From Planctomycetota bacterium (GTDB lineage: Bacteria > Planctomycetota > UBA1135 > UBA2386): a DNA stretch of 64,000 bases. The notes beneath the pieces were generated by a model. That model did not search any database and was not told the DNA's origin. It worked only from the letters and a program-made list of their open reading frames with translations. The position numbers and the translations under genes are program-made. The DNA is taken from positions 4,005 through 68,004 of the forward strand of contig JACRLW010000056.1 of NCBI GenBank assembly GCA_016235155.1. The letters run 5' to 3'. The number at the start of each line of letters is the position of its first letter. Within the stretch, counting starts at the first letter, position 1. This document shows, in pieces, positions 2,722 through 64,000 of the stretch.

Positions 2722-2756
2722 CGGGTTCAGCGTGGCTTCGTGAAGGGTGGCGTCGT

Positions 2757-14558: not shown

Positions 14559-15009
14559 GGACCACCTCGAATGCTTGCCATCGCGGAGATCCTCGAAGCG
14601 ACGATCTCCGCGCGGAGCGCTTGTAGCGGTCCTCTCGACGAGCGACCCGGTGCGGCGAGGTCGTGACGCGATCGATACGCACGGATCGCAGCCCATCGCC
14701 GGCCGTTCACGGCTGCCATCCCGTGACGCCGCGACCCGCGTTCGCTACACCGTCTCCCCATGCCCACGGCGGGTGTCCGTCGGTCGGCGTTCGCGGCTGC
14801 CGCGCTTCTCGGCCAGCTCGCCGCCGCATCGTGTTGCTAGACAGCGGCGATCGCCCGAGCGAGGGCGCGGACCTGCTTGGGTTGGATCCGCGGCGCTTCG
14901 GCGAGGCGCCGCGGCTCCGCGTCGCGTGGACGGATGCCGAGCGCGACGAACTCCGCGCGGCCGTGGCGGAGGTAGAACGACTCCTTCGGATCCGGCACTG
15001 AGGCACCGA

Positions 15010-48523: not shown

Positions 48524-51500
48524 ATGGCCCCGCCGCACGACCTGGACCTCGCGCGCATCCGTCGCCGGCTCGGCGACGCATTCGAGCTGTTCGAGGTGCT
48601 CGGCGCCGGGGCGTCGGGCGCGGTGTTGAGGGCGCGCACGCGGAACGACGCGTACGGCGCGCCGGCCGGCAGCGACGTGGCGGTGAAGGTCCTGCGCGAG
48701 GAACTCGCGCGCGACGAGACGGCCCGCGCGACGCTGATCCGCGAGGCCGAGCTCGGCCGGCGGGTGCGCGACCCTCACGTCGTCGCGATCCTCGGCACGG
48801 GCGAACTCGACGATGAACATGGCCCGCTGCTGTTCCTGGTCAGCGAACTCGTGCGCGGACGCTCGCTCCGCGGGCGCATCCAGGCGCACGGCGCGGTGGT
48901 CGGCGATCTCGCGCGACGCATCGCGGAGCACACCTGTCTCGCGCTCGCCGCGCTCCACGAGGCGGGGATCGTCCACCGCGACGTGAAGCCGGAGAACCTG
49001 CTCGTCACCGACGGCGACGCCGAGGTGCGGCTCGCGGATCTCGGGCTCGCGCGCGCCGACGACGGGCCGTCGCCTCTCGGGAGCAGCTCCGGATTCCACG
49101 GCAGCCTCGCCTACGCGGCGCCCGAGCTGCTGACCGGCGGCGCGGCGACGGCGGCGAGCGACCTGTACGCGCTCGGCGTCGTGCTGTTCGAACTGCTCAC
49201 AGGGCGCCATCCGTTAGCCGGCGCGCGCGACGCGGACTCCTTGATCCGCGCCCAGCTGCACGACGCACCGCCGCGCGCGTCGCACCTCGAACCGCGCGTG
49301 TCGGCCTTCCTCGAGACGATGGTGCAGGAGCTCCTCGCGAAGGACAAAGCGGCCCGGCCGCAGCCCGCGCGCGACGTCGCCGCGATCTTCGCGCAGGGTG
49401 AGGCTTCGCCGTTCTGGCGCGAGCGCGAGGCACGGGCCCCGGCTCTGGCGTCGCGCCGCCGTCTGCTCGCGTTGCAGCGCACGCGCCACTGCGCCTTCGT
49501 CGACCGCACGGCGGAGGCGGCGCGTCTCGACGCCGCGTTCGCCGACGCCTGCGCCGGTCGCGGCCGTTCGATCGTCGTCGTCGGCCACGCGGGTTGCGGG
49601 CGGCGTCGCCTCCTCGGGTTCGATCGTCGTCGTCGGCCACGCGGGTTGCGGGCGGCGTCGCCTCCTCGGCGAACGCATCGGCAACTGGCTCGACGCCCGC
49701 GGCGACGTGGTCTTCCTCGGCGGCATCGCGGAGAACGAGCCGACGACCCGCTTCGGCGCGCCGTTCCCCAGGATGATCTGCGAGGTCCTTCTCGAAGGCG
49801 AACGCGAGGACGCGCCGCGCGCGCGCGAGCGCATCGCCGAGCGCGCGAAGGACCAGCTCGGCTTCGATGCCGAGGACTCGTTGCTCCTCGCGGAACTCTG
49901 TGCCGGCGACGCGCGGAAGATCAGCGCCGACCGCGGCTCGCGCGCCGACCTGCTCGCACGCGCGCTGGCGCGGATCGCGGCGCGCGGCGGACCGCTGGTC
50001 GTGCGCATCGACCGCTCCGACGACGCCAACTCCACCGCGGTGCGCGTGATCGAGCTGCTGATGCAGCGCTCGGTCGCGATGCACCTCCTCCTGCTGCTCG
50101 TGCGCACCAAGCCCTGGGACGGCGCCGTGCGTCCTGACGAGGAGATCGAGATCGGACCGCTGCCGCGCGAGGACTTCGTCGAACTCGCGCGGCGACTGTT
50201 CCGCGGGCGCGACGTCGACGAGCGCCTGATCGCCGACGCGCACGACGCGCTGGACGGGCAGCCGCGCGCACTGATCGAATGCCTCGAAGAGCTGGTGGCG
50301 GACGGCCGTCTCGCCGGCAGGCCCGGCGACTTCTTCGCGCTCGCGCCGACGGTCCTCGAACTGCGCCCCGCGCGCCCGATGCTGCACCGCGTGCGCGCGC
50401 GCATCGCGGCGCTGCCGCAGGCGCAGCGTCACGTGCTGCTCGCCGCCGCGGTGCTCGGCGACCGCTTCGAACTCGCCGACGTCGAAGCGCTGACCGGTCG
50501 CCCCGCGCTCGAGGTCCTCGACAGCCTCGGCGCGTTCGACAACCGGGTGGCGGGCATCGAAGGCGGCGAGGGCCGCTTCCGTCATCGCGAGTACCGCCTC
50601 GCGACGCTCGCGACCGTGCCGCCCGCCGCGCTGCGCGCCTTGCATCGCGACGCGGCGTGGGTCCGCGAGGATCGCGGCGCTCCGCCGTTCGAGGTCGGCA
50701 TGCACCTCTCGCGCGCGATGGAGCACGAGGCGTGCCTCGATCCACTGCTGCTCGGCCTCGACAACCTCGTGCGCGCCAGCGCGCGGCGCGCGGCCGTGCG
50801 ACTCGTCGAGCGACTGCATCTCCACCTCAACCGCCTGCCGCGCACGCCGGTGAACCTCGAGCGCCGTCTGCGCTGGCTGCTGCTCGCCGGTCGCTCCTGG
50901 CTCCTGCTCGACGACGAGGAGCGCGCCACGCGCTCGTTCAAGAAGGCGGTGCTGATCGCGATCCACGTGCAGCGGCCGCGCGAGCACGCCGAAGCGCTCG
51001 CCGGGCTCGCCGAACTCGCGCAGCTCCATTCGCGCTGGTTCGCCGCGATCCAGCTGCTGACCGCCGCCGATGCGTTGCTCGTCGACCTTCACGACGACGC
51101 GGCGCGCGCGGTCCGCACGCGGGTGTTGATGATCCACGCGCGCGTCCTCGCCTACCTCGGCGACGCGCAGCAGGCGCTCAAGCTCGCGGGTCAGGCGCTG
51201 CGCTCGCTGCCGCCGGGTCACGACGCGCTCGAAGCGCACCTGCGCATCGACTACGCGCGCTGGCTCGCGCTGCGGCTCCATCTCGTGCGCGCGATCGGCG
51301 AGCTCGACCGTGCGCGCGAACTCGCCCACCGTTGCGGCGACACCTATGCCGAAGCGCGCGTGCACCTCCACCGCGGCCGCAACCTCGGCATGCTCGGCGA
51401 GACGAAGGCCGCGCGCGCCGAACTGCGCGCCGCGCACGATCTCGCGGTCCGCATCGGCGACGCCCGCACGCGCGGTCGCGCGCGCCTCTTCGAAGCGGAA

Positions 51501-51935
51501 CTCGAGGTCTTCGTCGGCCGCGCCGAACGCACCAACGCCCTGCTCGAAGACGCCCTGCGCGAGGCCGAGATCGCCAGCGACGACGTGATGGCCGGCCATG
51601 CACGCGCCTGCCTGCTGCTCGCCGAACCGTCGCGGGAGCTGCCCGCGGAACCCGAGCGCATCGGCGCCCCGCTCGCCGACGTCATGCATCTGCTCGCGCA
51701 CGCGTTGCGGAAGCGTCGCGACGGCGACGAGCCCGGATCGAAACGGCTCCTGCGCGAAGCCTGCGCTCTCGAACACCGCGCGCGCGTCGTCCTCCCCCTG
51801 CGGCTCTTCCTCCTCCGCGCCGCCGACCGCGAGCTGGCCGCCGACAAGCTCGTCGCCGTCGCCATCGAGCGCATGCCGGCGGAGCATCGCAAGCGCTTCC
51901 TCGCCTGGGCGGAGCGGGTGCGGGTGCGGGGGTGA
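48524..51935 (+). pseudogene. Ser/Thr protein kinase - AAA_16-like NTPase - TPR/helical repeat protein, frameshifted by a 52-bp tandem duplication
   Basis: ORF 48524..50137 carries the kinase motifs 'VAVKVL', 'HRDVKPENLL', 'DLG', 'YAAPE', then '..GRGRSIVVVGHAGCGRRRLLG' before the frame is lost. ORF 49398..51935 re-reads 'GSIVVVGHAGCGRRRLLGERIGNWL..' and continues ~770 aa of sensible helical/TPR-like sequence. Removing one repeat copy gives a single ~1119-aa ORF. Confidence 0.8.
49566..49669. repeat. Exact 52-bp tandem duplication (2 copies)
   Basis: gttcgatcgtcgtcgtcggccacgcgggttgcgggcggcgtcgcctcctcgg occurs at 49566-49617 and again at 49618-49669. Both ORF-track translations confirm it. Confidence 0.9.
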
Positions 51936-51987
51936 GGGCGAGGGCGAGGGGCTTCCGCCATCGGGCGCTACCATCCTCCGCCACGCG

Positions 51988-52281
51988 ATGAAGCCGTTGT
52001 CCGAGGACCTCGACGACCCGCACGCACAGCCCTACTTCATCTGGGACGTGCCGATCACGGTGCGCGAACTGAAGGACATCCTCGCGGGCGAGGACGACGC
52101 CACGACCGCGCTGTGGACGGCGCGCGTCATGCGAGAAGCGCGCTATCCGGACGTGTGGCGCTTTCTGACGCTCGACCAGGTCGTCCGGCGCCACTCCCGT
52201 GCGGAGCGCCACCTCGGTCGTCGCCGCCGCTTCTGGAAGTTCCTGCTCGAAGGATGGCGCGCGGATGGACTGCTCCCCTGA
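51988..52281 (+). CDS. Small AbiEi-C-terminal-like (antitoxin-like) protein, 97 aa
   Basis: Tail of ORF 51598..52281, from ATG 51988 (MKPLSEDLDDPHAQPYFIWDVPITVRELKDIL..). The pattern 'F(I)WDV....L......ARV(M)REA...DVW.FL.L..V......HLGRRRRFWKFLLEGW' resembles partners of AbiEii-type nucleotidyltransferases. Overlaps the next ORF by 17 nt. Confidence 0.55.
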   Translation: MKPLSEDLDDPHAQPYFIWDVPITVRELKDILAGEDDATTALWTARVMREARYPDVWRFLTLDQVVRRHSRAERHLGRRRRFWKFLLEGWRADGLLP

Positions 52282-52507
52282 TCGCCTGACCGGACTGCAG
52301 CGCGCGCTGCTCGCGGCGTTCTTCGCGCGCGAGCAGCGCTTCGTCCTGACCGGCGGCGCCGCGCTCGGCGGTTTCTGACCCCACCACCGCGTCAGCCAGG
52401 ATCTCGATCGCTTCGCGCGCAACCCGCTCGATCTCGATCGCTATCGCGCGAGGCTCGTGCGCCGCTTGCGGCGCATGGCGCTGCCGCGCGACGGATCGAG
52501 CGCGTGA
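52265..52507 (+). pseudogene. AbiEii/AbiGii-like nucleotidyltransferase toxin remnant (in-frame TGA, truncated)
   Basis: My translation: MDCSPDRLTGLQRALLAAFFAREQRFVLTGGAALGGF*PHHRVSQDLDRFARNPLDLDRYRARLVRRL..*. It matches the family N-terminus (..LTGGTAL..FYL.HR.S.DLD.F) with TGA at 52376-52378 where an aromatic residue is expected. It stops after 80 codons, whereas family members as I recall them run to a few hundred aa. Confidence 0.6.
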
Positions 52508-52596
52508 CCGAGGGCTGAGCGTCGACCGGCACGCGCAAGCGCAGCGGTGCGGTCGACATGCGTAGCGCGCGAAGGCGCCACGCCGACCGACCACGG

Positions 52597-52623
52597 GCAC
52601 GAAGTGGCGCATTGCGCCACCCC
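52597..52623. repeat. Copy C of 27-nt element GCACGAAGTGGCGCATTGCGCCACCCC
   Basis: Identical over 27 nt to copy D. Contains the perfect palindrome GTGGCGCA-T-TGCGCCAC (52604-52620). Lies between convergent ends 52507 (+) and 52675 (-). Position confirmed through ORF 52547..52810 ('HEVAHCATP'). Confidence 0.9.
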
Positions 52624-52674
52624 GCGCCGCTCCGGTTCCGCGAGGCACGCCTCGATCCACGCGGGCTTGCGAGA

Positions 52675-53010
52675 TCACTCCGTCGAGCGCCGGTTCGCGC
52701 TCGCGGAAGCGATCTCGTCCTGCGCGAGCAACTCTTCCACCACGCGCGGCGACGCCTGCACGACGAACGAGCCGAGGCTCGGGAACACGTGCCAGTCCTC
52801 CACGCGCTAGCCGCTCGCCTTCTCCACGCGCGCGAGCAGTTCGCGCACCGTCGCCTGCGTCTCCTCCGCGACGGGCGCGCGGGAGCGCGCGGGCATCGTC
52901 GCGGACTTCAGGAAGAAGACGACCTGCACCGAACGCTTGGCCGCGGTCGCGGCTTCGAGCTGCTTTCGCAGCTCGGGGTCCTTGCCTTTGGAGTTCGAGT
53001 GCTTGGGCAC
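52675..53010 (-). pseudogene. Stand-alone subtilisin-propeptide (I9)-like mini-protein interrupted by in-frame TAG
   Basis: ORF 52807..53010 (MPKHSNSKGKDPELRKQLEAATAAKRSVQVVFFLKS..TVRELLARVEKASG) ends at TAG 52807-52809. The same frame continues RVEDWHVFPSLGSFVVQASPRVVEELLAQDEIASASANRRSTE* with strongly GC3-biased codons. The two halves together mimic the beta-alpha-beta-beta-alpha layout of the adjacent S8 gene's own N-terminal region. Confidence 0.5.
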
Positions 53011-53061
53011 GTCCGATCGTGGTTCGACGGCGCGGAAGTCTACGCGCGGGACGGCGCAGCG

Positions 53062-54384
53062 TCAGGATCGCAGCACGCGCAGCGCTTGCACGGCGTCGGG
53101 GATGCCGCGGTTGCCGCGCTGCTGCGGCATGCCCGAGGGCCGCTTGCACGATTGGAAGATGGCGCGCTCGACCTCGGCGACGGACCGCGTCGGCTCGGCT
53201 TGGATCAACAGCGCCGCGAGACCGGCGACATGCGGCGTGGCCATCGACGTGCCGTCCATGCTCTGCCAGCCACCGCCCGGCGCCGCGGAGATCACGTCGA
53301 CGCCCGGCGCGACCAGGTCCGGCACGATCGCCGCCTTCTTGCGCTTGAAGCGCTGGCTGCTCGAGAAGTCCGCGACGGCGGACGCATCGTCGTGGGCCCC
53401 GACCGAGAGCGCGTCGACGTAGTTGCCCGGCGAGCGGCTCGTGCCCGGCCCTTCGTTCCCGACCGCGAAGACCGGCAGCACGCGATTCGCGCGCAGGATG
53501 CGCGTCAGCATCACGAAGTCGTCCCACCAACCGCGGAAGCCCAGCGACATGCTGAGCACGCGCACGCCCTGGCCGAGCGACCAGTCCATTCCACCGAGCA
53601 CGCGCGCGACGACGTCGCCGCCTTCGATCACGACCGCGCTCGCAAGCTTCGCCTCCGGCGCGACTCCGACGTGCCGGCCGCTGACCGCCCGCCCCGCGAT
53701 CGTCGCCGCGGTGTGCGTGCCGTGATCGTCCGTGTCGAAGGGCTTGGGCGCCGGGGTCACCTCGCGGCCGAGGTCGTCGAACTCGGCGAAGCCCGCGATC
53801 GCCGTGCGCAGGGCCGGGTGTGCACCGTCGACGCCCGTGTCGAGGTGGCCGACGAGGACGCCCTCGCCGCGCAGGCCCTCGTTCTTCCACAGCTCGGGCA
53901 CCTTCATCGCTTCGATGCCCCAGGTCGTCTTCGCCGCAAGCTTCGCCGCGGCCTTCGCCGCCGGACGGATCAGGCTGAACGTCGGCGCGCCGGTGACCTT
54001 CGCGACCCGGGCGTCCGCGCGCAGCGCCGCGATGCCCTCCTTCGACGCAGTGCCGAGCATGATCCCGAGCCGGGGATAGACGCGGACCTGCGGAACCTCG
54101 CCGCGCCCGGCGCCGGCCTTCGCCACGCCGCTGCGCACGGCCGCGCGCAACGCGCGCCCTTCGCCCGCCGCGAGCCCGAGTTCGCTGGCCTGGCTGAGTT
54201 CACTGCTCCTGAAGTGCCTGGCGAGATCGCCGGCGGACGAGCTGCCGCGGGCCGGCGCGGCGCCGGTCGCGGCGAAGGCCGCGGCGCCCGCGGTCGCGGC
54301 GGCGCCGGACTCGGCGCCGCGCAAGAAGACGAGAACCTGCGCGACTCCGCGCGCGGAGAGCTCCTGTTGGATGATCGACGACAT
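53062..54384 (-). CDS. S8 (subtilisin-like) serine peptidase, no signal peptide, with N-terminal propeptide-like region
   Basis: Last 440 codons of ORF 53062..55026, from MSSIIQQELSARGVAQVLVFLRG (ATG 54382-54384, GGAG 7 nt upstream). Triad contexts 'VGHLDTGVD', 'HGTHTAATIAG', 'GTSMATPHVAGLAALL'. Confidence 0.85.
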   Translation of the reverse strand: MSSIIQQELSARGVAQVLVFLRGAESGAAATAGAAAFAATGAAPARGSSSAGDLARHFRSSELSQASELGLAAGEGRALRAAVRSGVAKAGAGRGEVPQVRVYPRLGIMLGTASKEGIAALRADARVAKVTGAPTFSLIRPAAKAAAKLAAKTTWGIEAMKVPELWKNEGLRGEGVLVGHLDTGVDGAHPALRTAIAGFAEFDDLGREVTPAPKPFDTDDHGTHTAATIAGRAVSGRHVGVAPEAKLASAVVIEGGDVVARVLGGMDWSLGQGVRVLSMSLGFRGWWDDFVMLTRILRANRVLPVFAVGNEGPGTSRSPGNYVDALSVGAHDDASAVADFSSSQRFKRKKAAIVPDLVAPGVDVISAAPGGGWQSMDGTSMATPHVAGLAALLIQAEPTRSVAEVERAIFQSCKRPSGMPQQRGNRGIPDAVQALRVLRS

Positions 54385-54566
54385 GTTCGTGCTCCAAGGC
54401 TGCGGCCCGAGGACGTGAGTGGGCCGCAAGGTATGAAGCGAACGAGCGGGGTGCCGTCCGCCACAATTCTTCGGCGAGGCATGTAACGTCTCGGCCCCCT
54501 GCCCTGGTGAAGAGGCAGGACGGCCGGTCCGCGCCGGCCAGCGCACGGCTTCGAACGAGCAAACCC
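54385..54566. promoter_or_regulatory. Shared divergent upstream region of the S8 peptidase and CHAT-STAND genes
   Basis: 182-nt non-coding gap between divergently oriented start codons, so it must hold both promoters. No specific motif identified. Confidence 0.4.
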
Positions 54567-57500
54567 ATGACCCCACGCTCGCTCCGCGTCTGCTGTTTCG
54601 ACCTCGCCTCCGCCGGCCAAGGTGGCGCGCTGCGCCTGCAGATCCCGGGGCGCCCGCTCGCCGAAGCGCGCGTCGTGACGGCCGTCGATCTCGCGGCGAT
54701 CGCGGCCGGCGCCGAGACCCTTCGCGACGCCGAACGCGCGCGGCGCAGCGGCTCCAGGGTCGATCCGGCGGGACCGATGCGGGCGCACGGCGAGGCGATC
54801 TACCGGCTGCTCGACGGCCCGGGGCGCGACCTGACGTCCGCGCTGCACGACGCGCACGAACACGGCTGCGATCTGCTCGTCGTCGTCCGGCTGCTCGGCA
54901 ATCCCCGCACGCACCCGGCCTGCGGCTGGCGCTTCGAACTCGCGCACGACGGCGACGGACACGTCGCGCGGCGCCGCGGCGTGCAGTTCGTGGTGCAGTA
55001 CGGCGATCGCGCGGTCGGCGAACCACAGCGCCTCGATCACGGCCGGCTGCGCATCCTGTTCATGGCCTACTCGCCGCAGGGCGTCGAGCCCGTGCTCGAC
55101 TACGAAGGCGAGGAGGAAGCCGTGCTCGAAGCGCTCGCGCCGAACGTCGAGGCCGGCCGCGTGAGCGTCGAGGTCGTCGAGGACGGCACGCTCGCCGAAC
55201 TCGGGCGACGCCTCAAGACCGCGCGCTACGACGTCGTCTACCTCAGCGGGCACGGCGAGCTCCGCGAGGACGGGCCGGTGCTGTTGCTCGAGGACGAGGT
55301 TGGCGGACTCGATCTCGTGGGCACCGAGCGCCTGTTCGACGCGCTCGCGCGCGGGCAGACCATGCCGCAGCTCGTCGTGCTCGCGTCGTGCGAGACCGCG
55401 GGCAACCGCGACGACGTGGCGAGCATGGCGGCCGGCCTCGTCGCGCGCGGCGTTCCCGCGGTGCTCGGCTGGGTCCGCCCCGTCGCCGACGCGGACGCGA
55501 CGCAGGCGAGTCGTGATCTCCTCGACCAACTCGCGACCGGGCACGCGCTGCCCGAGGCCGCGGCGTTCGCACGGCGCGAACTCGCCGACACCGACGCGAA
55601 GCGGCACGCGCCGGCGCGCACGCACGGCTGGTCGACCATGCACCTCGCGACCGGCGAGGCCGCGGGCTTCGCGCTCGACGTCGGCGTTCCCCCACCGGAG
55701 GCGGGCCTCGCGCCACCGACCGAGATCTACAAGTTCCTCGGCGACGGCCGCATGCGCGTGCTGCAGCAGGGCTTCGTCGGGCGCCGCCGCGCGCTGCAGC
55801 GCCTGATCCGCATCCTCCGTCACGGCAAGGACGGCGACGCGACGCGCGCGGGCGCGGTCGTGATCGGCATGAAGGGGGTCGGCAAGTCCTGCCTCGCCGG
55901 CCGCGCGATCGACCGACATGGCCAGGACAGCGGCGAGCTCGCGCTGCTCGTGCTCCACGGCGCACTCGACGACGCGACCGTCCTCGAACACGCGCGGCGC
56001 TGCGCCGTCGCGTCCGGCGACCGGGAGGCGGAGAAGGTGCTGGAGAACGTCAACGAGCCGGTCGAGCGGCGCATCGAGCGCCTGCTGCTCGGCCGCTGGA
56101 GCAAGCGCGCGCTGGTCGTCGTGCTCGACGACTTCGAGAAGAACCTCGAGCTGTGTCCCGACGGCCTCGCGCGCCTCTCGCCCTTCGCCGCCCCTCTGCT
56201 CGGCACGCTGCTGCCCGCCTGCCGCACGGCCAAGGCGAAGGTCCTGATCACGAGCACCGTCGACTTCGAGCTGGCGCCGCAGCTCCAGGGCTCGCTCAGC
56301 GCGATCGAACTCGGCCCGCTCGAACCGAGCGACGTCCGCAAGCTCTGGACGCGCGGCCGCGAGACCGACCTGCGGGACGTCTCGCCCGCGCAGTGGGACG
56401 CGCTCGCCGAGCGCCTCGGCCGCAACGCCCGCATCCTCGACTGGGCGCGCATCCTGCTCGGCGGCCGCAGCTCGCGCGAGATCGAGGACCTCGTCGCGAA
56501 GGCGCAGGCGGAACTGCCGGTGTGGCGCGAGGGCGCCGGGGATGTCGACGCGCAGACCCGGCTCGTCGAGCTGTTCCTCTTCCACTCCGCGCTCGACCGC
56601 GCGCAAGCCGAGGCGCACCCGGACGTGCGCGTGTTCCTCGAGCGCGCGCGGGTCTACGAACTCGCGGTACCGATCGAAGCGTTGCTGCCGATGGGCGATG
56701 GCCTTCAGCTCGACCTCCGCCGCGAGATCCCGGCGCTGGCGAACGTCGGGCTGCTCGAGTTCGGCAGCTTCGAGGGTGGGCGGGGCTACCGGGTGAGTCC
56801 GCTGGTCGTCGCGGAGTTAGCTGTCGCCGACGCTGAGCGCTGGCACCGCGCGGCAGCCCAGTACTTTGAGGGGGTGTCGAACACGAGGCATGGCCGGCGA
56901 GCTGATCTCATTACGCGCGCATGGGAGCATTCGCTCTTCGCGGACACCGAAGACCTCTCAGACCGCCTCGGAAGCCAACTCCGGGCACACCTGCACCTGG
57001 AGGGCCTGTACAGCATGGCCTATTCCATGGCCGAGCGTCAGATTCGCGCGTATCCACACAGCTTTTTCGCCGCACTCTGGGCGGGAGATGCCGCACTCGA
57101 TGCTGGACGAGTGTCAGAGGCCAGAACGCATTTCGAACTCGCGGATCTCCATGCAGAGCGTCCCGACATCGACCCGCTGCTCGTCGCAATGCTCCATCAT
57201 CAGTACGCACGAGTTCTCGCGACACAAGGCGAGTTCGACAGCGCATGCGAACGGCTAGGGAGCTCCTACGCACTCCTCCTTAGGTGCTTTGGTACGGAGG
57301 CACGTCTTGAGATTGCAACGTCTCTTCACCAGCTCGCAGTGACATTGAGCGATCGGCGAAAGCCGCTCGAGGCGCTCCCAGTAATCACACGTGCACTCGG
57401 AATCCGCCGGGCCCTTCTTGGAACGGATGAGCACCGCGACGTCGCAGCAGACGTCCACGAACTTGCGCGAGTCCTGCGCGCACTCGATAGGCTGCCAGAG

Positions 57501-58265
57501 GCAAGAGCGCAAATAGAGCATTCAGTGGCAATCAAACGTAGGCTCTTTCCAGACAACGATCACCGGGACGTCGCTGCCAGCCTACACGAACTTGGGTCCA
57601 TACACCGAGCTCAAGGAAACCTTACAGATGCTGGTGCTTGCCTGACGCAGGCGCTTACCGTGCAGCGGCGCGTGTACACGACCGATGATCACCCGGACGT
57701 CGCGGGCACGCTTCACGAACTTGCGCTGGTCCTCTTTGAGCAGCAAGCAGCCGACGCTGCAATAGAGTCTTTGAGGAAGGTGCTGACGATCGAGAGTCGG
57801 ATCTACCACACGCGCAATCACTACAGGCTGGCTGAGTCCGAGTTTGCTCTCGGGATGATGCTTATCGAGAACGACAAGGCAGAGGAAGGCACGGAGTTCG
57901 TGAATCACGCCCTCGAGGTCCTGCGCGCACAGGTGCCCGGGCATCCGATTCTGCAGCAGATCGCGCGCATCTCACCGGTGAACGTCGCCAGAGCTGCGCT
58001 CGGGGCGCGACAGAGCGGAGAGCGCGGTGACGCCCTCGATCAGGGTCTCGACGCACTGCACAAGGCCGGCGAGCCGCACGCGACCGTGGCGGCGTACCTC
58101 GACGCGATCGCGCGACGCGCCGGTCCGGCGCTCGTGCCACTCCCCGGCGGCGCTCGCTCGCTCGATGACGTGGCGCGTGACCTGCCCGAGGACATCGCGA
58201 AGTTCCTCCGCACGGTTCGTGACGCCGCCCTGGCCGCGGATGCCGCGCGCGAGGGCCCTGCCTAA
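54567..58265 (+). CDS. CHAT (caspase-like) protease - STAND P-loop NTPase (NB-ARC/NACHT-like) - TPR repeat protein, 1232 aa
   Basis: ORF 54507..58265; ATG 54567 preferred (GTG 54507 possible). Caspase-type dyad contexts 'DVVYLSGHGEL' and 'QLVVLASCETAGN'. Walker A 'VVIGMKGVGKSCLAGRAI', Walker B 'ALVVVLDDFEKN'. C-terminal array of TPR_12-like units ('DEHRDVAADVHELARVLRAL', 'NDHRDVAASLHELGSIHRAQG', 'DDHPDVAGTLHELALVLFEQ'). Confidence 0.85.
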   Translation: MTPRSLRVCCFDLASAGQGGALRLQIPGRPLAEARVVTAVDLAAIAAGAETLRDAERARRSGSRVDPAGPMRAHGEAIYRLLDGPGRDLTSALHDAHEHGCDLLVVVRLLGNPRTHPACGWRFELAHDGDGHVARRRGVQFVVQYGDRAVGEPQRLDHGRLRILFMAYSPQGVEPVLDYEGEEEAVLEALAPNVEAGRVSVEVVEDGTLAELGRRLKTARYDVVYLSGHGELREDGPVLLLEDEVGGLDLVGTERLFDALARGQTMPQLVVLASCETAGNRDDVASMAAGLVARGVPAVLGWVRPVADADATQASRDLLDQLATGHALPEAAAFARRELADTDAKRHAPARTHGWSTMHLATGEAAGFALDVGVPPPEAGLAPPTEIYKFLGDGRMRVLQQGFVGRRRALQRLIRILRHGKDGDATRAGAVVIGMKGVGKSCLAGRAIDRHGQDSGELALLVLHGALDDATVLEHARRCAVASGDREAEKVLENVNEPVERRIERLLLGRWSKRALVVVLDDFEKNLELCPDGLARLSPFAAPLLGTLLPACRTAKAKVLITSTVDFELAPQLQGSLSAIELGPLEPSDVRKLWTRGRETDLRDVSPAQWDALAERLGRNARILDWARILLGGRSSREIEDLVAKAQAELPVWREGAGDVDAQTRLVELFLFHSALDRAQAEAHPDVRVFLERARVYELAVPIEALLPMGDGLQLDLRREIPALANVGLLEFGSFEGGRGYRVSPLVVAELAVADAERWHRAAAQYFEGVSNTRHGRRADLITRAWEHSLFADTEDLSDRLGSQLRAHLHLEGLYSMAYSMAERQIRAYPHSFFAALWAGDAALDAGRVSEARTHFELADLHAERPDIDPLLVAMLHHQYARVLATQGEFDSACERLGSSYALLLRCFGTEARLEIATSLHQLAVTLSDRRKPLEALPVITRALGIRRALLGTDEHRDVAADVHELARVLRALDRLPEARAQIEHSVAIKRRLFPDNDHRDVAASLHELGSIHRAQGNLTDAGACLTQALTVQRRVYTTDDHPDVAGTLHELALVLFEQQAADAAIESLRKVLTIESRIYHTRNHYRLAESEFALGMMLIENDKAEEGTEFVNHALEVLRAQVPGHPILQQIARISPVNVARAALGARQSGERGDALDQGLDALHKAGEPHATVAAYLDAIARRAGPALVPLPGGARSLDDVARDLPEDIAKFLRTVRDAALAADAAREGPA

Positions 58266-58274
58266 GCTCGCGGC

Positions 58275-58967
58275 ATGGAGCCGAGTCGGATGGAAGCGCT
58301 GCGCCGGACCCTCGAACGCCAGTTCAGCGAACCCGACGGCGAGCAGCGCACCCGCGCCGAGCGCCTGCGCAGCCGGCTCTGGCCACGGTTGCGCCGGCAA
58401 CTGGACGAACACCCCCGCACGAGGGCCCGGCTCGACGCGCACACGGCGACGGACTCCGAGCTGCTCGCCCGCATGCGCGACGGCGACGCCGAGGCCTTCG
58501 ACCTGGCCTTCGCGCGACACGGCGCAGCGCTCCTCGCCTTCGCCGCGCGTTCGCTGCCGCTGCACGACGCCGAGGAGGCGACCCAGGACGCGTGGCTCGA
58601 TCTCGTCGAGAAGCGCGCCTCGCTCCCGCTCGCCGTCGAACTGCGGCCGTACCTGTTCGGCTTCGTCCGCATCGCCGTGCTCCGCGCGCTCGCGAAGCGC
58701 GTGAGCCTCGAAGCCCTGCCCCAGGACCTCGTCGACGACGCCGCAAGCGACGCCATCCTCGCCGCCTGTCGCAAGGAGGACGACGAGCGACTCGCGGCCG
58801 CGCTCGCGACGCTCGACGTGCTGGAGCAGGAGCTGATCCTCCGCTCACTCGCGGGCGAGACCGGCACGGTGATCGCGACAGCCCTCGGACTCACGCCCGG
58901 CAACGAGCGTGTGCGCAAACACCGCGCGATCCGGAGGCTCAGGCGCGCGCTCGGGAGCGCACCATGA
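58275..58967 (+). CDS. ECF-type sigma-70 family RNA polymerase sigma factor with ~55-aa N-terminal extension
   Basis: ORF 58275..58967, 9 nt after the CHAT-STAND stop. Region 2 'SELLARMRDGDAEAFDLAFARHGAALLAFAARSL..AEEATQDAWLDLV'. Region 4 'LEQELILRSLAGETGTVIATALGLTPGNERVRKHRAIRRLRRAL'. Confidence 0.85.
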   Translation: MEPSRMEALRRTLERQFSEPDGEQRTRAERLRSRLWPRLRRQLDEHPRTRARLDAHTATDSELLARMRDGDAEAFDLAFARHGAALLAFAARSLPLHDAEEATQDAWLDLVEKRASLPLAVELRPYLFGFVRIAVLRALAKRVSLEALPQDLVDDAASDAILAACRKEDDERLAAALATLDVLEQELILRSLAGETGTVIATALGLTPGNERVRKHRAIRRLRRALGSAP

Positions 58968-59149
58968 GCGGAGGCCGCCGCCCGGACCCGAACGCGACCA
59001 GGCGCGAGGCACGCCTCCGCGCACAGCTCGTGGCGCTCGAGATCCGCAAGGCCGCGACCGCCGACCGTCGATTCACCGCGCTCGCCGCGCGCCTTCGCTC
59101 GCGCCTGCGCGAGGTCGTGCGCGCCGCGCTCGCGCGCCGGGCGCAGTGA
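58964..59149 (+). CDS. 61-aa Arg-rich helical protein, translationally coupled to the sigma factor (possible anti-sigma/partner)
   Basis: Tail of ORF 58592..59149. ATG 58964 overlaps the sigma stop (ATGA). MSGGRRPDPNATRREARLRAQLVALEIRKAATADRRFTALAARLRSRLREVVRAALARRAQ. No TM or Zn motif. In this GC context coding status is uncertain. Confidence 0.4.
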   Translation: MSGGRRPDPNATRREARLRAQLVALEIRKAATADRRFTALAARLRSRLREVVRAALARRAQ

Positions 59150-59150
59150 C

Positions 59151-59966
59151 TCACCCGCACGAAGTGGCGCATTGCGCCACCCCCATCCCCCGCCACGCCA
59201 GCGACCACCGCAGCTTCCTCGCCATCCGTTCCCACGCGACGCGACGCGCGGTGCGCTCCATCCCCATGCCCCGCAGGAACTCCGTGAAGTCGCGCGCGCG
59301 GACTGTCACGCCGAGTTCCCGTTGATGGCGACGGAGCCAGCGCGCCATGCGGACGAGCATCGCGTCGCGGCGCGCCAAGCTCAGCGCGTCGACCAGTTCG
59401 GCGCGGTCGAGGTCGAGCAAGACGACTTCGACGGCGCCGCCGCTCGCGGCGCGCGCGATCAGGTTGGCGGGGTGGAGGTCGCGATGGTCCAGTCCCGCGG
59501 AGAAGGCCTGCGCGACGACGGCGCCGGCGCGGCGCAGCGCTTCCCTCCGCAGGTCCGTGCGCGCGGCGACGAACGACGGCAGAGGCAAGGCGTCGCGCAC
59601 GAGCAGGGTCGCGAGGCGCAGTGATCGGAACGGACCGCGACGGCGCGCGAGGGCGGCGACCGACTCGACGACCGCGACTCCGCGCGCGCGCAGGGCGGCG
59701 GTGACCGCGAGTTCGCCGAACGCGCGTTGCTCCGAGAGGAACAGGTCGGGCAGGAGCCGGCGCAATGCGCCGCCGCGCTTGTAGTCGCGCAGCGCGACGT
59801 CGAGCCCGGCGATGCGCGCGATGCGCACGCCGCCGCGGCCGAGAGCGCCGTCGAGCGGCACGCCGTCCTGCCAGAACTCCGCGAGCGGAACCGCCGCGAG
59901 ATCACTGCGCACGAGGGCCAGATCGCCGCCGTCCGTCCGTCGCACGTAGCCCGCGGGAGTCGTCAA
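59151..59966 (-). CDS. Kdo/LPS kinase (KdkA/InaA) family protein
   Basis: Tail of ORF 59151..60287. Start proposed at TTG 59966 (MTTPAGYVRRTDGG). 'VALRDYKRGGALRRLLPD', 'TLLVRDALPL', 'GLDHRDLHPANLI', 'VVLLDLDRAE'. Confidence 0.65.
   Translation of the reverse strand: MTTPAGYVRRTDGGDLALVRSDLAAVPLAEFWQDGVPLDGALGRGGVRIARIAGLDVALRDYKRGGALRRLLPDLFLSEQRAFGELAVTAALRARGVAVVESVAALARRRGPFRSLRLATLLVRDALPLPSFVAARTDLRREALRRAGAVVAQAFSAGLDHRDLHPANLIARAASGGAVEVVLLDLDRAELVDALSLARRDAMLVRMARWLRRHQRELGVTVRARDFTEFLRGMGMERTARRVAWERMARKLRWSLAWRGMGVAQCATSCG
59157..59183. repeat. Copy D of 27-nt element GCACGAAGTGGCGCATTGCGCCACCCC
   Basis: Identical to copy C and in the same orientation. Starts 8 nt after the 61-aa ORF stop and forms the last ~10 codons (..GVAQCATSCG*) of the convergent LPS-kinase-like gene. 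Position confirmed through ORF 58909..59325 ('HEVAHCATP'). Confidence 0.9.
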
Positions 59967-60045
59967 GCGCGCGGATGATACGGAGCACGTCGCGCCCGCT
60001 ACATTCCCGCTGCTCGCCCGCTCTCGTTCCCCACGGCCACGCACC

Positions 60046-61029
60046 ATGCTCGCTCGCCCGCTCTCTTGGATCGCCGTCCTCGCGCTCGCCACCGCCGCCT
60101 CGCTCCCGTCGCAGTCGATCAGCACGATCTGGACCGGCGGCAACAGCGGCACGACCGGTTGGACCAACCAGTTCGACCTGACGGTGCTCGCGCCCTCGGG
60201 AATCACCATCCTCGGCTTCGACGTGAACTGTGAGAACACGCGCGCCGGCGGCGTCGGCTCGCCGTTCACACTCACCGTCTGGATCACGATCGGCGGCGGG
60301 ACCTACGTCGGGAACCAGACCAATCCCGGTGCATGGACGTCGATCGCGATCGGCTCGGGCGTGTCGCGCGCGCTGGGTTCGCCCACCCCGGTCGACGTCG
60401 ACGACTTCTGGCTGGGGCCGGGCACCTACGGCATCGCGCTCGAGTACGTCGGCACCGCGATGGCGTACACGAACGGCAACGGCGCGAACCAGACCTACGC
60501 GAACGCCGACCTGAGCCTCGCGCTCGGCGCGTCGACGACCGGCCGCTTCGGTTCGCCGGTCTACTCGCCGCGCGTGTGGAACGGCGCGATCCACTACTTC
60601 GACGGCACCGCGCGCTGGTGGCCCTTCGGCGACGGCTGCCCGGGCACCGCGGGCACGCCGACTCTCGCGACAGCCGCGGGCAGCCTGCCGCGGCTCGGCA
60701 CGTTGTTCGCCCTCGAGTTCGGCAACCTCCCTGGTCCGGGAACGCTGGTCGCAGTGATGGTCGGCACATCGCGCTCGATGTGGGGCCCGACGCCACTGCC
60801 CTTCGAACTCACGCTGATCGGCGCGCCGGGTTGCAGCCTCCTGGTCGCACCCGACGCGAATGCCTTGATCGCCAGCGCGTCGACCGTCGCGAACTTCGCC
60901 CTGTTCGTGCCGCCGATCCAAAGCCTCGTCGGCGCGGCGCTCCACTGGCAGGGCGCGGTCGTCGACTTCAGCGCGAACGCCGCCGGCTTCGTGATGACCG
61001 CCGCAGGCACGAGCTACCTCGGCAACTGA
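60046..61029 (+). CDS. Secreted hypothetical protein with shared C-terminal module
   Basis: ORF 60046..61029. Signal-like [24 protein letters not shown]. '[53 protein letters not shown]'. Confidence 0.7.
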
Positions 61030-61047
61030 ATCGGGGACGCACGCCGC

Positions 61048-61746
61048 TCACGACGCCTCATCGCCCGTGATCCGCCCGTCGGTCATCCGCAGGCGGCGCC
61101 GCGCGCGCGCCGCGAGTGCCAGGTCGTGCGTGACGACGATCAAGGTGCGGCCCTCCGCGGCGAGTTCCTCGAGCAGGGCGACGATCTCCGCGCCGGATTT
61201 CGAGTCGAGGTTGCCGGTCGGTTCGTCGCAGAGCAGCAGCGGCGCCTTTGCGACCAGGGCGCGCGCGATCGCGACGCGCTGCTGCTGGCCGCCCGAGAGC
61301 TCGGCGCGGGTGTGCATCGACCGGTCGGCGAGGCCGACGCGCGCGAGCATCGCGGCGGCGCGCGCGCGGCGATCGCGCAGCGACACGCCCGCGTAGCGGA
61401 GCGGCAACGCGACGTTGTCGAGCGCCGTCATCCGCGGTGCGAGGTGGAAGGCCTGGAAGACGAAGCCGATGCGGCGCCGTCGCAGGCTGCGCTCGTCCGC
61501 GCTCAGCGACGCGAGCTCCTCGCCCAGAAGCCGGTAGCTCCCCGAACTCGGCGTGTCGAGGCAGCCGATCACGTGCAGCAGGGTCGACTTGCCCGAGCCC
61601 GAAGCGCCGGTCACCGCGACGTAGCTCTCGGCCGCGACCTCGAGGTCGACGCCGTCGAGCGCGCGCACGGGCGCACCCTCGCGTTCGTAGACCTTCGTCA
61701 CGCCGCGCAACGAGACCAGCGGCGCATCGACCGTGCGGTCACTCAT
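61048..61746 (-). CDS. ABC transporter ATP-binding protein (MacB/LolD type)
   Basis: Last 232 codons of ORF 61048..61896, from [20 protein letters not shown]. Walker A 'GASGSGKST', signature '[15 protein letters not shown]', Walker B '[12 protein letters not shown]'. Confidence 0.9.
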
Positions 61747-62971
61747 GCCGCAGCGCCTCCACCGGATCCACGCTCGCCGCGCGCCGCGCCGGAGCGAGGC
61801 CGGCAAGCGCCGCGACGAGACCGAGCACCGATGCGACGCCGAGCGCGACGCCCGGCGTCGGGACGGGCGAGCCGAGGTAGTCGCGCGCCGTCGCATCGAG
61901 CGGCAACGCGGCGAGTCCCATCAAGAGGAGCGTGCCGAGCCCGAGCCCCGCGCCGCCGCCGATCAGCACCAACACCAGAGCCTCGAGCAGCGGCCGCGCG
62001 ACGATCTGGCGCCGCGTCGCGCCGAGCGCCATGCGCACGCCGATCTCCGCGACGCGCTCCTCCACCATCGCGCGGGTCGAGTTCGCGATGCCGACGGCCG
62101 CGACCAGCAACCCGAGCACGCCGACGACCAGCAGGAACAGCCGCGTGCCGCCGACGATCCAGCCGATGCGCTCGGCCTGGCCCGCGTGGTCGCTGGTCCA
62201 GATCGCACGGTCGTCGCGCGGATCGAAACGCAAGCGCGCCGCGAGCCGTTCGACGACGCGCGCGAGCATCTTGGCGTGCGCCGCCGGGTCCTCGAGTTCC
62301 ACGAGCACGTAGCTCGGCCAACGCAGCGCGAAGCCCGCCTTCAGCGTGCTCACCGGCGCGAACGCCTTCCAGGCGTCCTCGCCGTCGTAGTTCATCACCA
62401 TCGCGCGCTTCACCACCACGCCGACGACGACGAAGGTCGAAGCACCGACCTGCACCTCGCGGCCGACCGGGTCCGTCGCGCCGAACAACTCGTGCGCGAG
62501 CGATTCGCCGAGCACGATCACGCGGCGCCGCTCGGCGTCGTCGATCGCCGAAACGAAGCGACCGCCGCCGCGCAAGGTGAGTCCGCGGATCGCCGCGAAG
62601 TCCGGCTCGACGCCGCGCAGGTTCACCGTCGCGCTGCGTGCGCCGGCGCGCAGCCGCGCCGAGAGCGCGTACTCCCGGCTCACGCGTCGCACGCCGTCCA
62701 GCTCGCGCAACGCGTCGACCGCGGCATCCTCGAGCCGGACGGGTCGGCCCGCGGGCACGCCGTCGAAGGGGCGCGTGGTCGAGCCGCCCGAAAGCCGCAG
62801 CATGCGTTCGCCGGATCGCGCCACGACCACGCGCATCGCGTCGTCGAAGCCCTGGCCGAATCCGGCGAGCACGACGAGACCCAAGGTACCCCAGGTCAAC
62901 GCGAACACGACGAGCGCGAGGCGACGCCGATCGGCCCACAGTTCGACGAGCAGTTCGCGAAGCTCCGCCAT
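61739..62971 (-). CDS. ABC transporter permease (MacB_PCD + FtsX domains)
   Basis: ORF 61739..62971. N-terminal TM, periplasmic domain, C-terminal FtsX 'VAEIGVRMALGATRRQI'. 8-nt overlap with the ATPase gene. Confidence 0.85.
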   Translation of the reverse strand: MAELRELLVELWADRRRLALVVFALTWGTLGLVVLAGFGQGFDDAMRVVVARSGERMLRLSGGSTTRPFDGVPAGRPVRLEDAAVDALRELDGVRRVSREYALSARLRAGARSATVNLRGVEPDFAAIRGLTLRGGGRFVSAIDDAERRRVIVLGESLAHELFGATDPVGREVQVGASTFVVVGVVVKRAMVMNYDGEDAWKAFAPVSTLKAGFALRWPSYVLVELEDPAAHAKMLARVVERLAARLRFDPRDDRAIWTSDHAGQAERIGWIVGGTRLFLLVVGVLGLLVAAVGIANSTRAMVEERVAEIGVRMALGATRRQIVARPLLEALVLVLIGGGAGLGLGTLLLMGLAALPLDATARDYLGSPVPTPGVALGVASVLGLVAALAGLAPARRAASVDPVEALRHE

Positions 62972-62974
62972 CGC

Positions 62975-64000
62975 TCAGTTCCGCAGCGCCATCACCGGAT
63001 CGAGGCGTGACACCGCACGCGCGGGCAGCGCACTCGCCGCCACCGCGCAGGCGCAGAGGACCAGGACCGCCGCGACGCCGAGCGCGAGCGGGATCCGCGG
63101 TACGCCGGTCTCCGCCGTCCACGGTCCGGCTCCGGCGATCGCGACCAGCGCGAATGCGAGCACGGCGCCGAGCGCTCCGCCGGCGCCGACGAGCAACAGG
63201 GTCTGCGCGCGGAGTTCGCGGCACAGCTGCGCGGGCCGCGCGCCGACCGCGAGCGCCAGGCCGAGTTCGGCGGTCCGCCGTCGCACCATCAGGTACATCA
63301 GGTGCGCGATGCCCACCGCGCCGGCCATCAACGTGACCGCTCCCGCGATGCCGACGACGACGTGGAAGCCGAGGAAGATCCAGCCGAGCATGCGTTGCTG
63401 TTCGGTGGTGTCCCACACCGACACCGCCTGGCGATCGGCCGGATCGAAGCGCAAACGTGCGGCGAGCGCGGCCACGACCGCCGCGGTGCACTCGGCCTGC
63501 CGCTCCGGGTCGCGCGCGCGGAACACGCAATCGTTCACGAAGCGACGGCCGTACGCGGCGGCCAAGGTCGTCGACGGCGCGAAGGCGAGCCCTTCGTCCT
63601 TGCCGCCGTAGTCGCTGTCCTGCTCCTTTTGCTCGAGCACGCCGACGACGAGGTACGGCGTGCGTCCGATCCGCACCTCGCGACCGACCGCGCTCCCCCG
63701 CGGGAAGAGGCGCAGCGCCAACCGATCGCCGAGGAAGACGACGCGGCGGCGTTCGGCGACGTCGCGCGCGTCGACGAAGCGTCCGCCCGGCGACGGACGC
63801 AACGTGCGCAGGCGCGCGAACACCGGCTCGACGCCGCAGATCGACACGCGCAGCGCGGCGTCGGCGCTCGCGATGCGATCCTGCACGCGGAACTCCGGGC
63901 TGATCGCGTCGAGTACGGGCACCGCGTTCCCGGCGGCGAGCACGTCGTCGCGCGTGATCGCGAGCGAGCGGCCCGCGGGCAGTCCTTGCCAGCTCTTGCT
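62975..64000 (-). CDS. Second MacB-type ABC permease (partial; 5' end beyond window)
   Basis: ORF 62975..63943, and the frame stays open to base 64000 (..SKSWQGLPAGRSLAITRDDVLAAGNAVPVLD..). FtsX 'TAELGLALAVGARPAQL'. Confidence 0.8.
   Translation of the reverse strand, partial: SKSWQGLPAGRSLAITRDDVLAAGNAVPVLDAISPEFRVQDRIASADAALRVSICGVEPVFARLRTLRPSPGGRFVDARDVAERRRVVFLGDRLALRLFPRGSAVGREVRIGRTPYLVVGVLEQKEQDSDYGGKDEGLAFAPSTTLAAAYGRRFVNDCVFRARDPERQAECTAAVVAALAARLRFDPADRQAVSVWDTTEQQRMLGWIFLGFHVVVGIAGAVTLMAGAVGIAHLMYLMVRRRTAELGLALAVGARPAQLCRELRAQTLLLVGAGGALGAVLAFALVAIAGAGPWTAETGVPRIPLALGVAAVLVLCACAVAASALPARAVSRLDPVMALRN

Follow-up and report, generated by a model that had tools for sequence, protein, structure and literature searches.

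Bacteria with complex life styles often encode caspase-like proteases fused to switches of the NLR/Apaf-1 type. The locus described here raises the question of whether such a protease kills or signals. It lies in a 64-kb stretch of Planctomycetota DNA with a G+C content of ~72% (called the window below, meaning the whole stretch that was analysed). There, a gene for a predicted CHAT protease-STAND NTPase-TPR protein is followed by a gene for a sigma factor of the extracytoplasmic function (ECF) type and by a small Arg-rich open reading frame (ORF). An earlier reading of the DNA letters (the original prediction) had proposed a sensing or defence module leading from the protease to the sigma factor; every coordinate and motif that it gave was confirmed, with a correction to one small gene. 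The best-supported description of the core is a self-contained cytoplasmic cassette, which consists of an ECF-type promoter, one to three CHAT genes, the sigma gene and usually a gene for a small anti-sigma-like protein. As to its function, we tentatively propose, at somewhat less than an even chance, that the CHAT protease, gated by the STAND module, proteolytically activates the sigma factor dedicated to it, in a positive feedback loop. The elements of the cassette are as follows.

54482..54510, plus strand: ECF-type promoter-like motif TGTAAC-N18-GGTGA, ~85 nt upstream of the CHAT ATG
54567..58265, plus strand: predicted CHAT protease-Apaf-1-like STAND NTPase-TPR protein, 1232 aa (Pfam CHAT, AAA_16 and TPR_12; AlphaFold2/Foldseek)
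55092..55634, plus strand: CHAT (caspase-fold) domain core, PF12770, residues 176-356
55251-55253 and 55389-55391, plus strand: codons of catalytic His229 and Cys275, both invariant in 38 sequences
55866..56138, plus strand: NTPase core, with Walker A GMKGVGKS at 55866-55889 and Walker B VVLDDFE at 56118-56138
57000..57866, plus strand: TPR_12/TPR_10 array (Pfam), about residues 812-1100; beyond it lies a C-terminal tail without TPRs
58275..58967, plus strand: ECF sigma factor, 230 aa (TIGR02937 above cutoff)
58275-58439, plus strand: N-terminal extension of the sigma factor, ~55 aa, with the codon of linker Arg50 at 58422-58424
58964..59149, plus strand: 61-aa Arg-rich small ORF, which overlaps the sigma stop codon (ATGA), has coding-type G+C at third codon positions (GC3) and is homologous to the ORFs of loci L002 and L003

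The sensor protease and its linked sigma factor

Profile searches placed the CHAT domain (PF12770) at residues 176-356 of the 1232-aa protein (75.4 bits against a cutoff of 24) and TPR_12 repeats in four stretches (99.8 bits), with a TPR_19 match at residues 812-866. The NTPase matched AAA_16 at residues 403-525 with a score under the Pfam cutoff (27.7 versus 32.6 bits), and NB-ARC (PF00931) was recorded in some homologues only. His229 (in DVVYLSGHGEL) and Cys275 (in LASCETAG) are invariant across 38 homologues with identities down to 27%. Moreover, the Gly and Lys of Walker A (residues 434-441) and the Asp and Glu of Walker B (residues 518-524) are invariant in 39 sequences, and the adjoining motif residues are at least 90% conserved.

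Sequence searches of the PDB with the CHAT and NTPase regions returned no match, and the folds were found through AlphaFold2 models instead. The model of residues 1-411 (predicted local distance difference test, pLDDT, 90.2) places His229 and Cys275 directly after beta strands 223-227 and 269-273, in a caspase-like arrangement, and its top Foldseek matches in the PDB are SAVED-CHAT, Csx29/Craspase, separase and DdvA (8tl0, 8eey, 7nj1 and 8rot). The model of residues 392-844 (pLDDT 90.1) matches best Apaf-1 (3sfz and 1z6t), the archaeal STAND-TPR protein 6mfv, CED-4, the plant NLRs NRC and ZAR1, and Avs3. The profiles, the conserved residues and the model matches together identify the protein as a predicted protease of the caspase fold, joined in one chain to an Apaf-1-like STAND NTPase and a TPR sensor. 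The His/Cys and Walker residues that had been picked out from the sequence are conserved, and in the two models they occupy the expected structural positions.

The sigma gene begins 9 nt after the CHAT stop codon (ATG at 58275). Its product, an ECF (group 4) sigma factor, scored above the cutoff of the NCBIfam sigma70-ECF profile TIGR02937 (45.5 versus 42.9 bits, residues 74-226), and its matches to Pfam region 2 and r4_2 were below threshold. The sigma core starts near residue 55-74, and therefore the ~55 residues before it form a genuine N-terminal extension. Both the 9-nt spacing and the extension had been noted originally; our analysis adds that the extension is conserved in the family. 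Across 13 loci and 51 family representatives it consists of a conserved amphipathic helix and, after it, a variable-length linker with Pro47 and Arg50. In the alignment of 13 sequences Arg50 is invariant and Pro47 nearly so. Among the 51 representatives, Arg occupies the position in 86% and Lys in most of the others, and the next residue is mostly Gly, Ser or Ala. The extension is retained also at loci without the small ORF, which makes it the most constant of the candidate regulatory or substrate elements.

When the sigma factor was used by itself in a word-index search for homologues, only two proteins were returned. A profile of the sigma family, searched against 1.84 billion proteins, yielded ~52 representative clusters at E <= 1e-30, with the extension covered down to roughly 100 bits, and it separated this rare family cleanly from generic ECF sigma factors. 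At one locus, L015 (Nannocystis sp. RBIL2, 14954-17177), an insertion of ~1 kb with further ORFs, possibly a mobile element, interrupts the sigma gene and leaves its N-terminal part at 14954-15436 and its C-terminal part at 16500-17177.

We searched 78 genome loci encoding CHAT-STAND relatives with the window proteins and the sigma profile. Members of the sigma family (136-324 bits) were detected in 13 loci, all within a close clade of CHAT proteins (at least 37% identity), and the sigma gene is present at 13 of the 14 close-clade loci with both flanks, L013 being the sole exception. None of the 58 distant CHAT-STAND loci (cyanobacteria, archaea and others) carries it. The clade includes planctomycete metagenome-assembled genomes (MAGs), Sorangium (four genomes, of which three are sigma-linked), Nannocystis (two genomes), Hyalangium, an Acidobacteriota MAG, Candidatus Entotheonella and other Myxococcota MAGs. 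Among the complete genomes with the cassette are Sorangium So ce26 and So ce388, Nannocystis punicea and Hyalangium versicolor. In the reverse test, six of the seven independently found sigma-family genes with available DNA abut a CHAT-STAND-TPR gene, and the seventh lies on a 1.6-kb contig, which is uninformative. As a negative control, 18 generic ECF sigma genes obtained by a DNA-pattern scan of metagenomes showed neither an extension nor a CHAT neighbour. Chance adjacency of the CHAT and sigma genes was therefore rejected on the ground of this two-way linkage across phyla. The original prediction had staked its case on a conserved linkage between the CHAT-STAND and sigma genes, and this was found, together with the small ORF in most loci.

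When the neighbours were compared all against all, and 64 flanking genes at nine diverse loci were surveyed with Pfam, no other recurrent family came up. The cassette is self-contained, with surroundings that differ from locus to locus. At L004, L005, L010 and L104, one sigma gene has two or three CHAT paralogues in tandem around it, which suggests that several sensors feed one sigma factor; the arrays extend over 9917-22810 in L005 and 4887-14629 in L010.

The N-terminal 160 residues of the CHAT protein are specific to this clade. The full C-terminal tail is common to seven close-clade loci and the CHAT gene of L099, and the remaining clade members align to the first ~40 tail residues only. 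None of five proteins (CHAT, sigma, small ORF and the two divergent genes described below) contains a transmembrane-like segment. The G+C content falls to 0.654 over the TPR-coding part (56001-58000), and the CHAT genes of L005, L006 and L010 have GC3 values of 0.73-0.83, versus 0.90-0.98 in their neighbours. The lower G+C of the CHAT genes hints at a horizontal origin or a distinct evolutionary regime of the sensors.

Proposed routes from the sensor to the sigma factor

In the mechanism that we propose, the TPR region would bind a ligand, and nucleotide-dependent oligomerisation of the STAND module would activate the CHAT protease. The protease would then cut one or both of two substrates: the sigma linker, at the conserved Arg/Lys (Arg50-Ala51 in the window), and the small partner. 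The freed sigma factor would bind RNA polymerase and transcribe promoters of the form GTAAC-N17/18-GRTGW, including that of its own operon, which would close a positive feedback loop, and in addition those of a regulon. That the protease cuts the sigma factor or its partner is an inference, for which some of the systems compared below offer precedents. Both candidate targets appear plausible, since relatives of the small ORF carry a zinc anti-sigma motif and the sigma extension is conserved, with a near-invariant basic residue in its linker.

The promoter-like motif bears on the last of these steps. The TGTAAC hexamer of the window copy occurs once across the 64 kb, counting both strands. In L002, L003, L005, L006, L011, L015, L016, L019 and L021, the pattern GTAAC-N17/18-G[GA]T[GT][ATC] precedes the CHAT ORF at a distance of 55-95 nt. 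L005 has it twice, the second copy preceding the second CHAT paralogue; L010 has a variant in the stretch from the sigma gene to the CHAT gene downstream of it, and L007 and L017 have variants with GAAAC or GTCAC. The motif was not seen at L008, nor at L013, which has no sigma gene. Because the flanking sequence is not conserved between phyla, we regard the motif as a shared regulatory element. Its layout resembles that of an ECF promoter with an AAC-type -35 element (consensus GTAAC-N17/18-GRTGW), and the cassette's own sigma factor presumably reads it. L013 is Sorangium cellulosum So0157-2, orthologous to and syntenic with L011, L016 and L019; it has kept the CHAT-STAND-TPR gene but has neither the sigma gene nor the small ORF nor the GTAAC -35 element, which looks like a natural joint loss of the three.

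A sigma factor that acts upstream only would also place such a promoter before the CHAT genes, including the extra paralogues. According to this alternative, the sigma factor and the small protein form a regulatory pair of the usual kind, in relatives with a zinc/thiol anti-sigma factor that would answer to oxidative or another stress. The pair would switch on the CHAT genes, and the protease would leave both partners alone and act on other proteins of the cell or of an invader, for example as an NLR-like effector of death or defence. Zinc anti-sigma motifs of the RsrA type (ZAS) are classic redox sensors, and relatives carry zinc anti-sigma motifs in their small ORFs, which agrees with this alternative. 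So does the control of defence genes by DdvS-type sigma factors (PMC11506125). However, a sigma family that serves a single operon, and keeps its extension even at loci without the small ORF, goes beyond what a simple switch requires, and the clade of the window has lost the zinc ligands and yet retained the cassette. Moreover, the 9-nt gap and the ATGA overlap are of a co-translation style that would yield fixed product proportions, and they suggest an interaction among the products. We consider this upstream-only role unlikely, but a serious competitor.

The small ORF is the second candidate target in the proteolytic mechanism. An ORF overlapping the sigma stop codon is present in most sigma-linked loci. 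In the window, the ATGA overlap with a 61-aa Arg-rich ORF is as originally described. The ORF encodes 16 Arg residues, and its G+C contents at the three codon positions (0.81/0.65/0.89) are of the coding type. It is homologous to the ORFs of L002 and L003 (Smith-Waterman z 2.9 and 5.5). With 11 synonymous and 6 non-synonymous codon changes, these planctomycete small ORFs appear to be under purifying selection. They contain no zinc ligands, and the window copy has neither Cys nor His.

Positional equivalents with the pattern C..HxxxCxxC were found in eight relatives (L011, L016, L019, L021, L005, L017, L007 and L099). These zinc-type ORFs of 69-106 aa come from Sorangium, Polyangiaceae, Acidobacteriota, Entotheonella and Archangiaceae and carry the motif C-x22-24-H-x3-C-x2-C once or twice. 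Five of them were scanned: four gave weak zf-HC2 matches (E 0.0025 to 0.14), and that of L011 gave a weak match to the ChrR anti-sigma factor. L110 encodes a 69-aa Arg-rich ORF in which the motif is absent and the C-terminal 'PPSPxL...R' helix of the zinc type is kept; this form bridges the Arg-rich and zinc-type small ORFs.

Several observations weigh against the proteolytic mechanism. The small ORF of the window has no zf-HC2 match in Pfam and none of the ZAS zinc ligands, and its similarity to the zinc-type ORFs is not significant (z about 1). We therefore do not class it as a ZAS protein, and its putative anti-sigma role would follow from its position and the one intermediate form. At four sigma-linked loci no small ORF was found. 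The conserved Arg/Lys of the sigma linker could be a structural or binding residue and not a cleavage site, and Csx29 reportedly cuts after Met or Leu, not Arg. A promoter before the CHAT gene fits equally a sigma factor that merely controls CHAT expression.

The sensor could also control the sigma factor without proteolysis. The TPR region, or the CHAT-STAND-TPR protein as a unit, would then bind the sigma extension or the small protein and sequester or release it with a change of nucleotide state, in the manner of partner switching, and the CHAT domain would serve autoprocessing or another substrate. In favour of such a role are the TPR array, which is a module for binding proteins, the conserved amphipathic helix at the N terminus of the sigma factor, and the C-terminal tail beyond the TPRs, which eight clade members have in common. 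The CHAT dyad of DdvA is dispensable for repression of DdvS in the resting state (PMC11506125), which points the same way. Nevertheless, the catalytic dyad is invariant in 38 of 38 homologues, indicating that proteolysis is under selection, and we hold sequestration to be quite improbable.

A bolder form of the proteolytic mechanism, which we regard as possible but distinctly speculative, is a bacterial single-chain 'apoptosome'. The protein would mature a pro-sigma factor at the Arg/Lys of its N-terminal extension, destroy a mini anti-sigma factor, or do both, forming a pathway from an NLR to transcription and not to killing. If this is true, the tandem sensor paralogues would pass several inputs on to the one sigma factor, in a self-amplifying loop. 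Since the cassette combines a genetically linked pair of candidate substrates with a candidate promoter, the question of killing or signaling can be tested by a reporter assay and a cleavage assay.

The divergent subtilase and the surroundings

Two further genes lie divergently upstream of the cassette.

53062..54384, minus strand: cytoplasmic subtilase of family S8, 440 aa, including an N-terminal domain of ~150 aa; lineage-specific neighbour (Peptidase_S8 PF00082, 157 bits)
52675..53010, minus strand: small gene of 111 codons downstream of the S8 gene (the mini-gene), with an in-frame TAG at 52807-52809 where L001, L002 and L003 have Glu

The S8 protein has the triad Asp182, His221 and Ser380 and the oxyanion residue Asn310, has no hydrophobic N-terminal segment, and is separated from the CHAT gene by a divergent spacer of 182 nt, in agreement with the original description of an intact D/H/S triad, a missing signal peptide and this spacer. 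The mini-gene does exist downstream of it, but is really a single frame of 111 codons that a TAG interrupts in the window. The codon reads Glu in L001, an independent Logan assembly of the same organism (run SRR12113407), and in both orthologues (L002 and L003), and both halves have a coding-type GC3 of 0.93.

The mini-gene had been likened to an I9 propeptide. Pfam I9 (PF05922) gave no match to it even at E <= 10, and profile searches of the PDB were empty. The N-terminal domain of the S8 protein likewise matched neither Pfam I9 nor a PDB propeptide. BLASTP of the mini-gene product against the S8 protein was negative, and hhalign detected a weak resemblance to the S8 N-terminal domain (E 0.0097, 32% identity, 76 columns). 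An identity as an I9 inhibitor is thus not shown by Pfam, PDB profiles or BLASTP, and the proposed likeness was undetectable with either set of profiles.

The pair had further been proposed as a second effector arm of the system. As an integral arm of a five-gene protease module, the S8 protein would, for example, process the CHAT protein or be processed by it, and the mini-gene product would act as an I9-type inhibitor or chaperone. In its favour, the five genes form one syntenic block with unrelated flanks in three planctomycete genomes (window, L002 and L003), and the pair is better conserved (69% identity) than the CHAT protein (54-55% by tblastn, 64% by BLASTP with P0002) or the sigma factor (46-47%). 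The weak resemblance of the mini-gene to the S8 N-terminal domain and the reported contexts of ECF54 with subtilase and CHAT genes (PMC8999054) also speak for it. However, the pair is absent from all 11 other sigma-linked loci, outside this lineage, and is therefore not core. No I9 signal was obtained with Pfam or PDB profiles, and no promoter motif faces the S8 gene. The three genomes are related to one another, and common ancestry would be enough to account for the synteny. An integral five-gene module is very improbable in our judgement; the data suggest a lineage-specific association, which shared ancestry could also explain.

The 1232-aa protein is identical to P0001, a protein of a MAG labelled 'Planctomycetes bacterium'. 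L001 spans positions 48968..61233 of the window and differs from it at two places only within 12.2 kb, each of which breaks a gene in the window version alone: the TAG of the mini-gene (52807-52809) and a 52-nt duplication (49566-49669). Both are probably assembly errors or minor variants. The duplication is a perfect tandem repeat within 48524..51935, where it frameshifts a Ser/Thr kinase-AAA_16-TPR gene into two frames and makes the window encode the peptide IVVVGHAGCGRRRLLG twice; L001 has one copy and an unbroken ORF. On the other side of the cassette, a convergent ORF of the Kdo/WaaP kinase family (59151-60287, minus strand) ends 1 nt past the stop codon of the small ORF. It is followed by ORFs at 61048-63943 (minus strand) that resemble, by sequence only, a MacB-type ABC transporter ATPase and two permeases. 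Neither the Kdo/WaaP kinase nor the MacB-like ABC genes are kept beside the cassette at other loci. Ser/Thr kinase genes occur near five loci. The taxa concerned are known to encode many such kinases, and we therefore judged a kinase link to be background.

The original prediction had also linked the locus to phage defence. PADLOC reported no system match, a weak match to BovA being confined to the CHAT part (E 1e-5), and its CRISPR/Craspase and Avs models gave no match. Defence genes are not enriched among the neighbours at nine diverse loci, which are heterogeneous and mostly of the housekeeping type. No relatives were found on viral contigs, and plasmids carry distant cyanobacterial relatives only. 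A defence role is thus unsupported by PADLOC, viral contigs, plasmids and the neighbourhood census. At L099, a DUF5953 gene, an insertion sequence (IS) transposase gene (rve) and an Imm52 immunity-protein gene lie directly downstream of the cassette (1773-4582); this is the only conflict-type neighbourhood among those viewed.

Relation to known systems

Release of a sigma factor by a regulated protease is known from several systems. In CalpL-CalpT-CalpS, associated with type III CRISPR, a signal-activated Lon-SAVED protease cuts an anti-sigma factor and thereby frees an ECF sigma factor. Our proposed mechanism follows the same logic of a protease that frees a sigma factor, but the Lon protease and the SAVED cyclic oligoadenylate switch are unrelated to the components found here, and the cassette has no CRISPR link. 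CalpL is the subject of PMC11417357.

Another such system is the type III-E Craspase, in which Csx29 acts on Csx30 and releases the ECF sigma factor RpoE (PMC10028731). Both systems encode a sensor-gated TPR-CHAT protease beside an ECF sigma factor and small partners, and the modelled CHAT fold of the window protein matches Csx29 (8eey and 8eex; E 1e-9 to 1e-10). However, neither Cas7-11 nor CRISPR is found among the window neighbours, which are genes for the S8 subtilase, a Kdo-family kinase, a Ser/Thr kinase and an ABC transporter, so that the locus is not of the Craspase type. The predicted switch is a fused Apaf-1-like NTPase and not an RNA-guided complex. In addition, the sigma factor has an N-terminal extension, and the partner is a protein of 61-106 aa, often zinc-type, rather than Csx30/Csx31.

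In DdvA-DdvS of Myxococcus xanthus, a CHCC zinc anti-sigma domain holds a sigma factor of the ECF type, and a TPR-CHAT region has been proposed to free it by proteolysis (PMC11506125). The structural match to 8rot and the C..HxxxCxxC ligand pattern shared by the small ORFs of relatives connect this system to ours. DdvA is, however, a single transmembrane polypeptide with periplasmic TPR-CHAT and no NTPase, whereas in our cassette all components are predicted to be cytoplasmic, the anti-sigma-like protein is separate and, in the window, lacks zinc ligands. The CHAT protein here has an NTPase and no ZAS domain, and therefore does not belong to the DdvA type.

A review and a computational study come near to the combination of genes seen here. 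ECF54 of the Actinobacteria, a group known from classification work, is described as having no recognised anti-sigma factor, with genes for CHAT proteins, subtilases and carboxypeptidases conserved nearby, and its proteolytic control has been proposed (PMC8999054); ECF58 is a neighbouring group in Planctomycetes (PMC7826278). The protease families (CHAT and subtilase) match those of the window, a likeness of reported context only. Our cassette occurs instead in Planctomycetota, Myxococcota, Acidobacteriota and Entotheonella, its sigma factor has an N-terminal extension, a small anti-sigma-like ORF is usually present, and the subtilase is not a conserved partner. The actinobacterial CHAT protein P0059, considered as an ECF54 context, proved to belong to a Trypco1/trypsin-CHAT system with no sigma gene and was set aside. 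Kaur et al. (2021) described EACC2-caspase proteins, with STAND NTPases among their variable C-terminal modules, beside an ECF sigma factor proposed as the final transcriptional step and beside a DUF1822 protein with TPRs (PMC8195603). By that description, the caspase-superfamily proteins with STAND NTPases next to an ECF sigma factor are alike in both, but DUF1822 was not found near the window cassette or in the nine-locus neighbour census. The original claim that the combination is uncharacterised thus stands for experiments, but computation has made it not wholly unfamiliar, given the caspase-ECF association of PMC8195603 and the CHAT/subtilase context of ECF54 in PMC8999054.

Apaf-1/CED-4 and the Avs/NLR proteins share with the window protein an NB-ARC-like NTPase and a repeat sensor that control a caspase-family protease (PMC13581612). 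In our protein, unlike these, the protease is fused and not recruited, and it is linked to a sigma factor as output, not to a death effector. If the proposed mechanism is true, protease-released sigma factors would not be limited to CRISPR-associated systems (Craspase and CalpL) and those of the envelope (DdvA), but would extend to a free-standing sensor of the cytoplasm that is gated by nucleotides and occurs in at least four phyla. The ECF field would gain a further mode of control, namely a pro-sigma factor with a dedicated caspase-like maturase. In addition, the compact parts of the cassette (an orthogonal sigma factor, its promoter and a protease switch) could serve synthetic biology.

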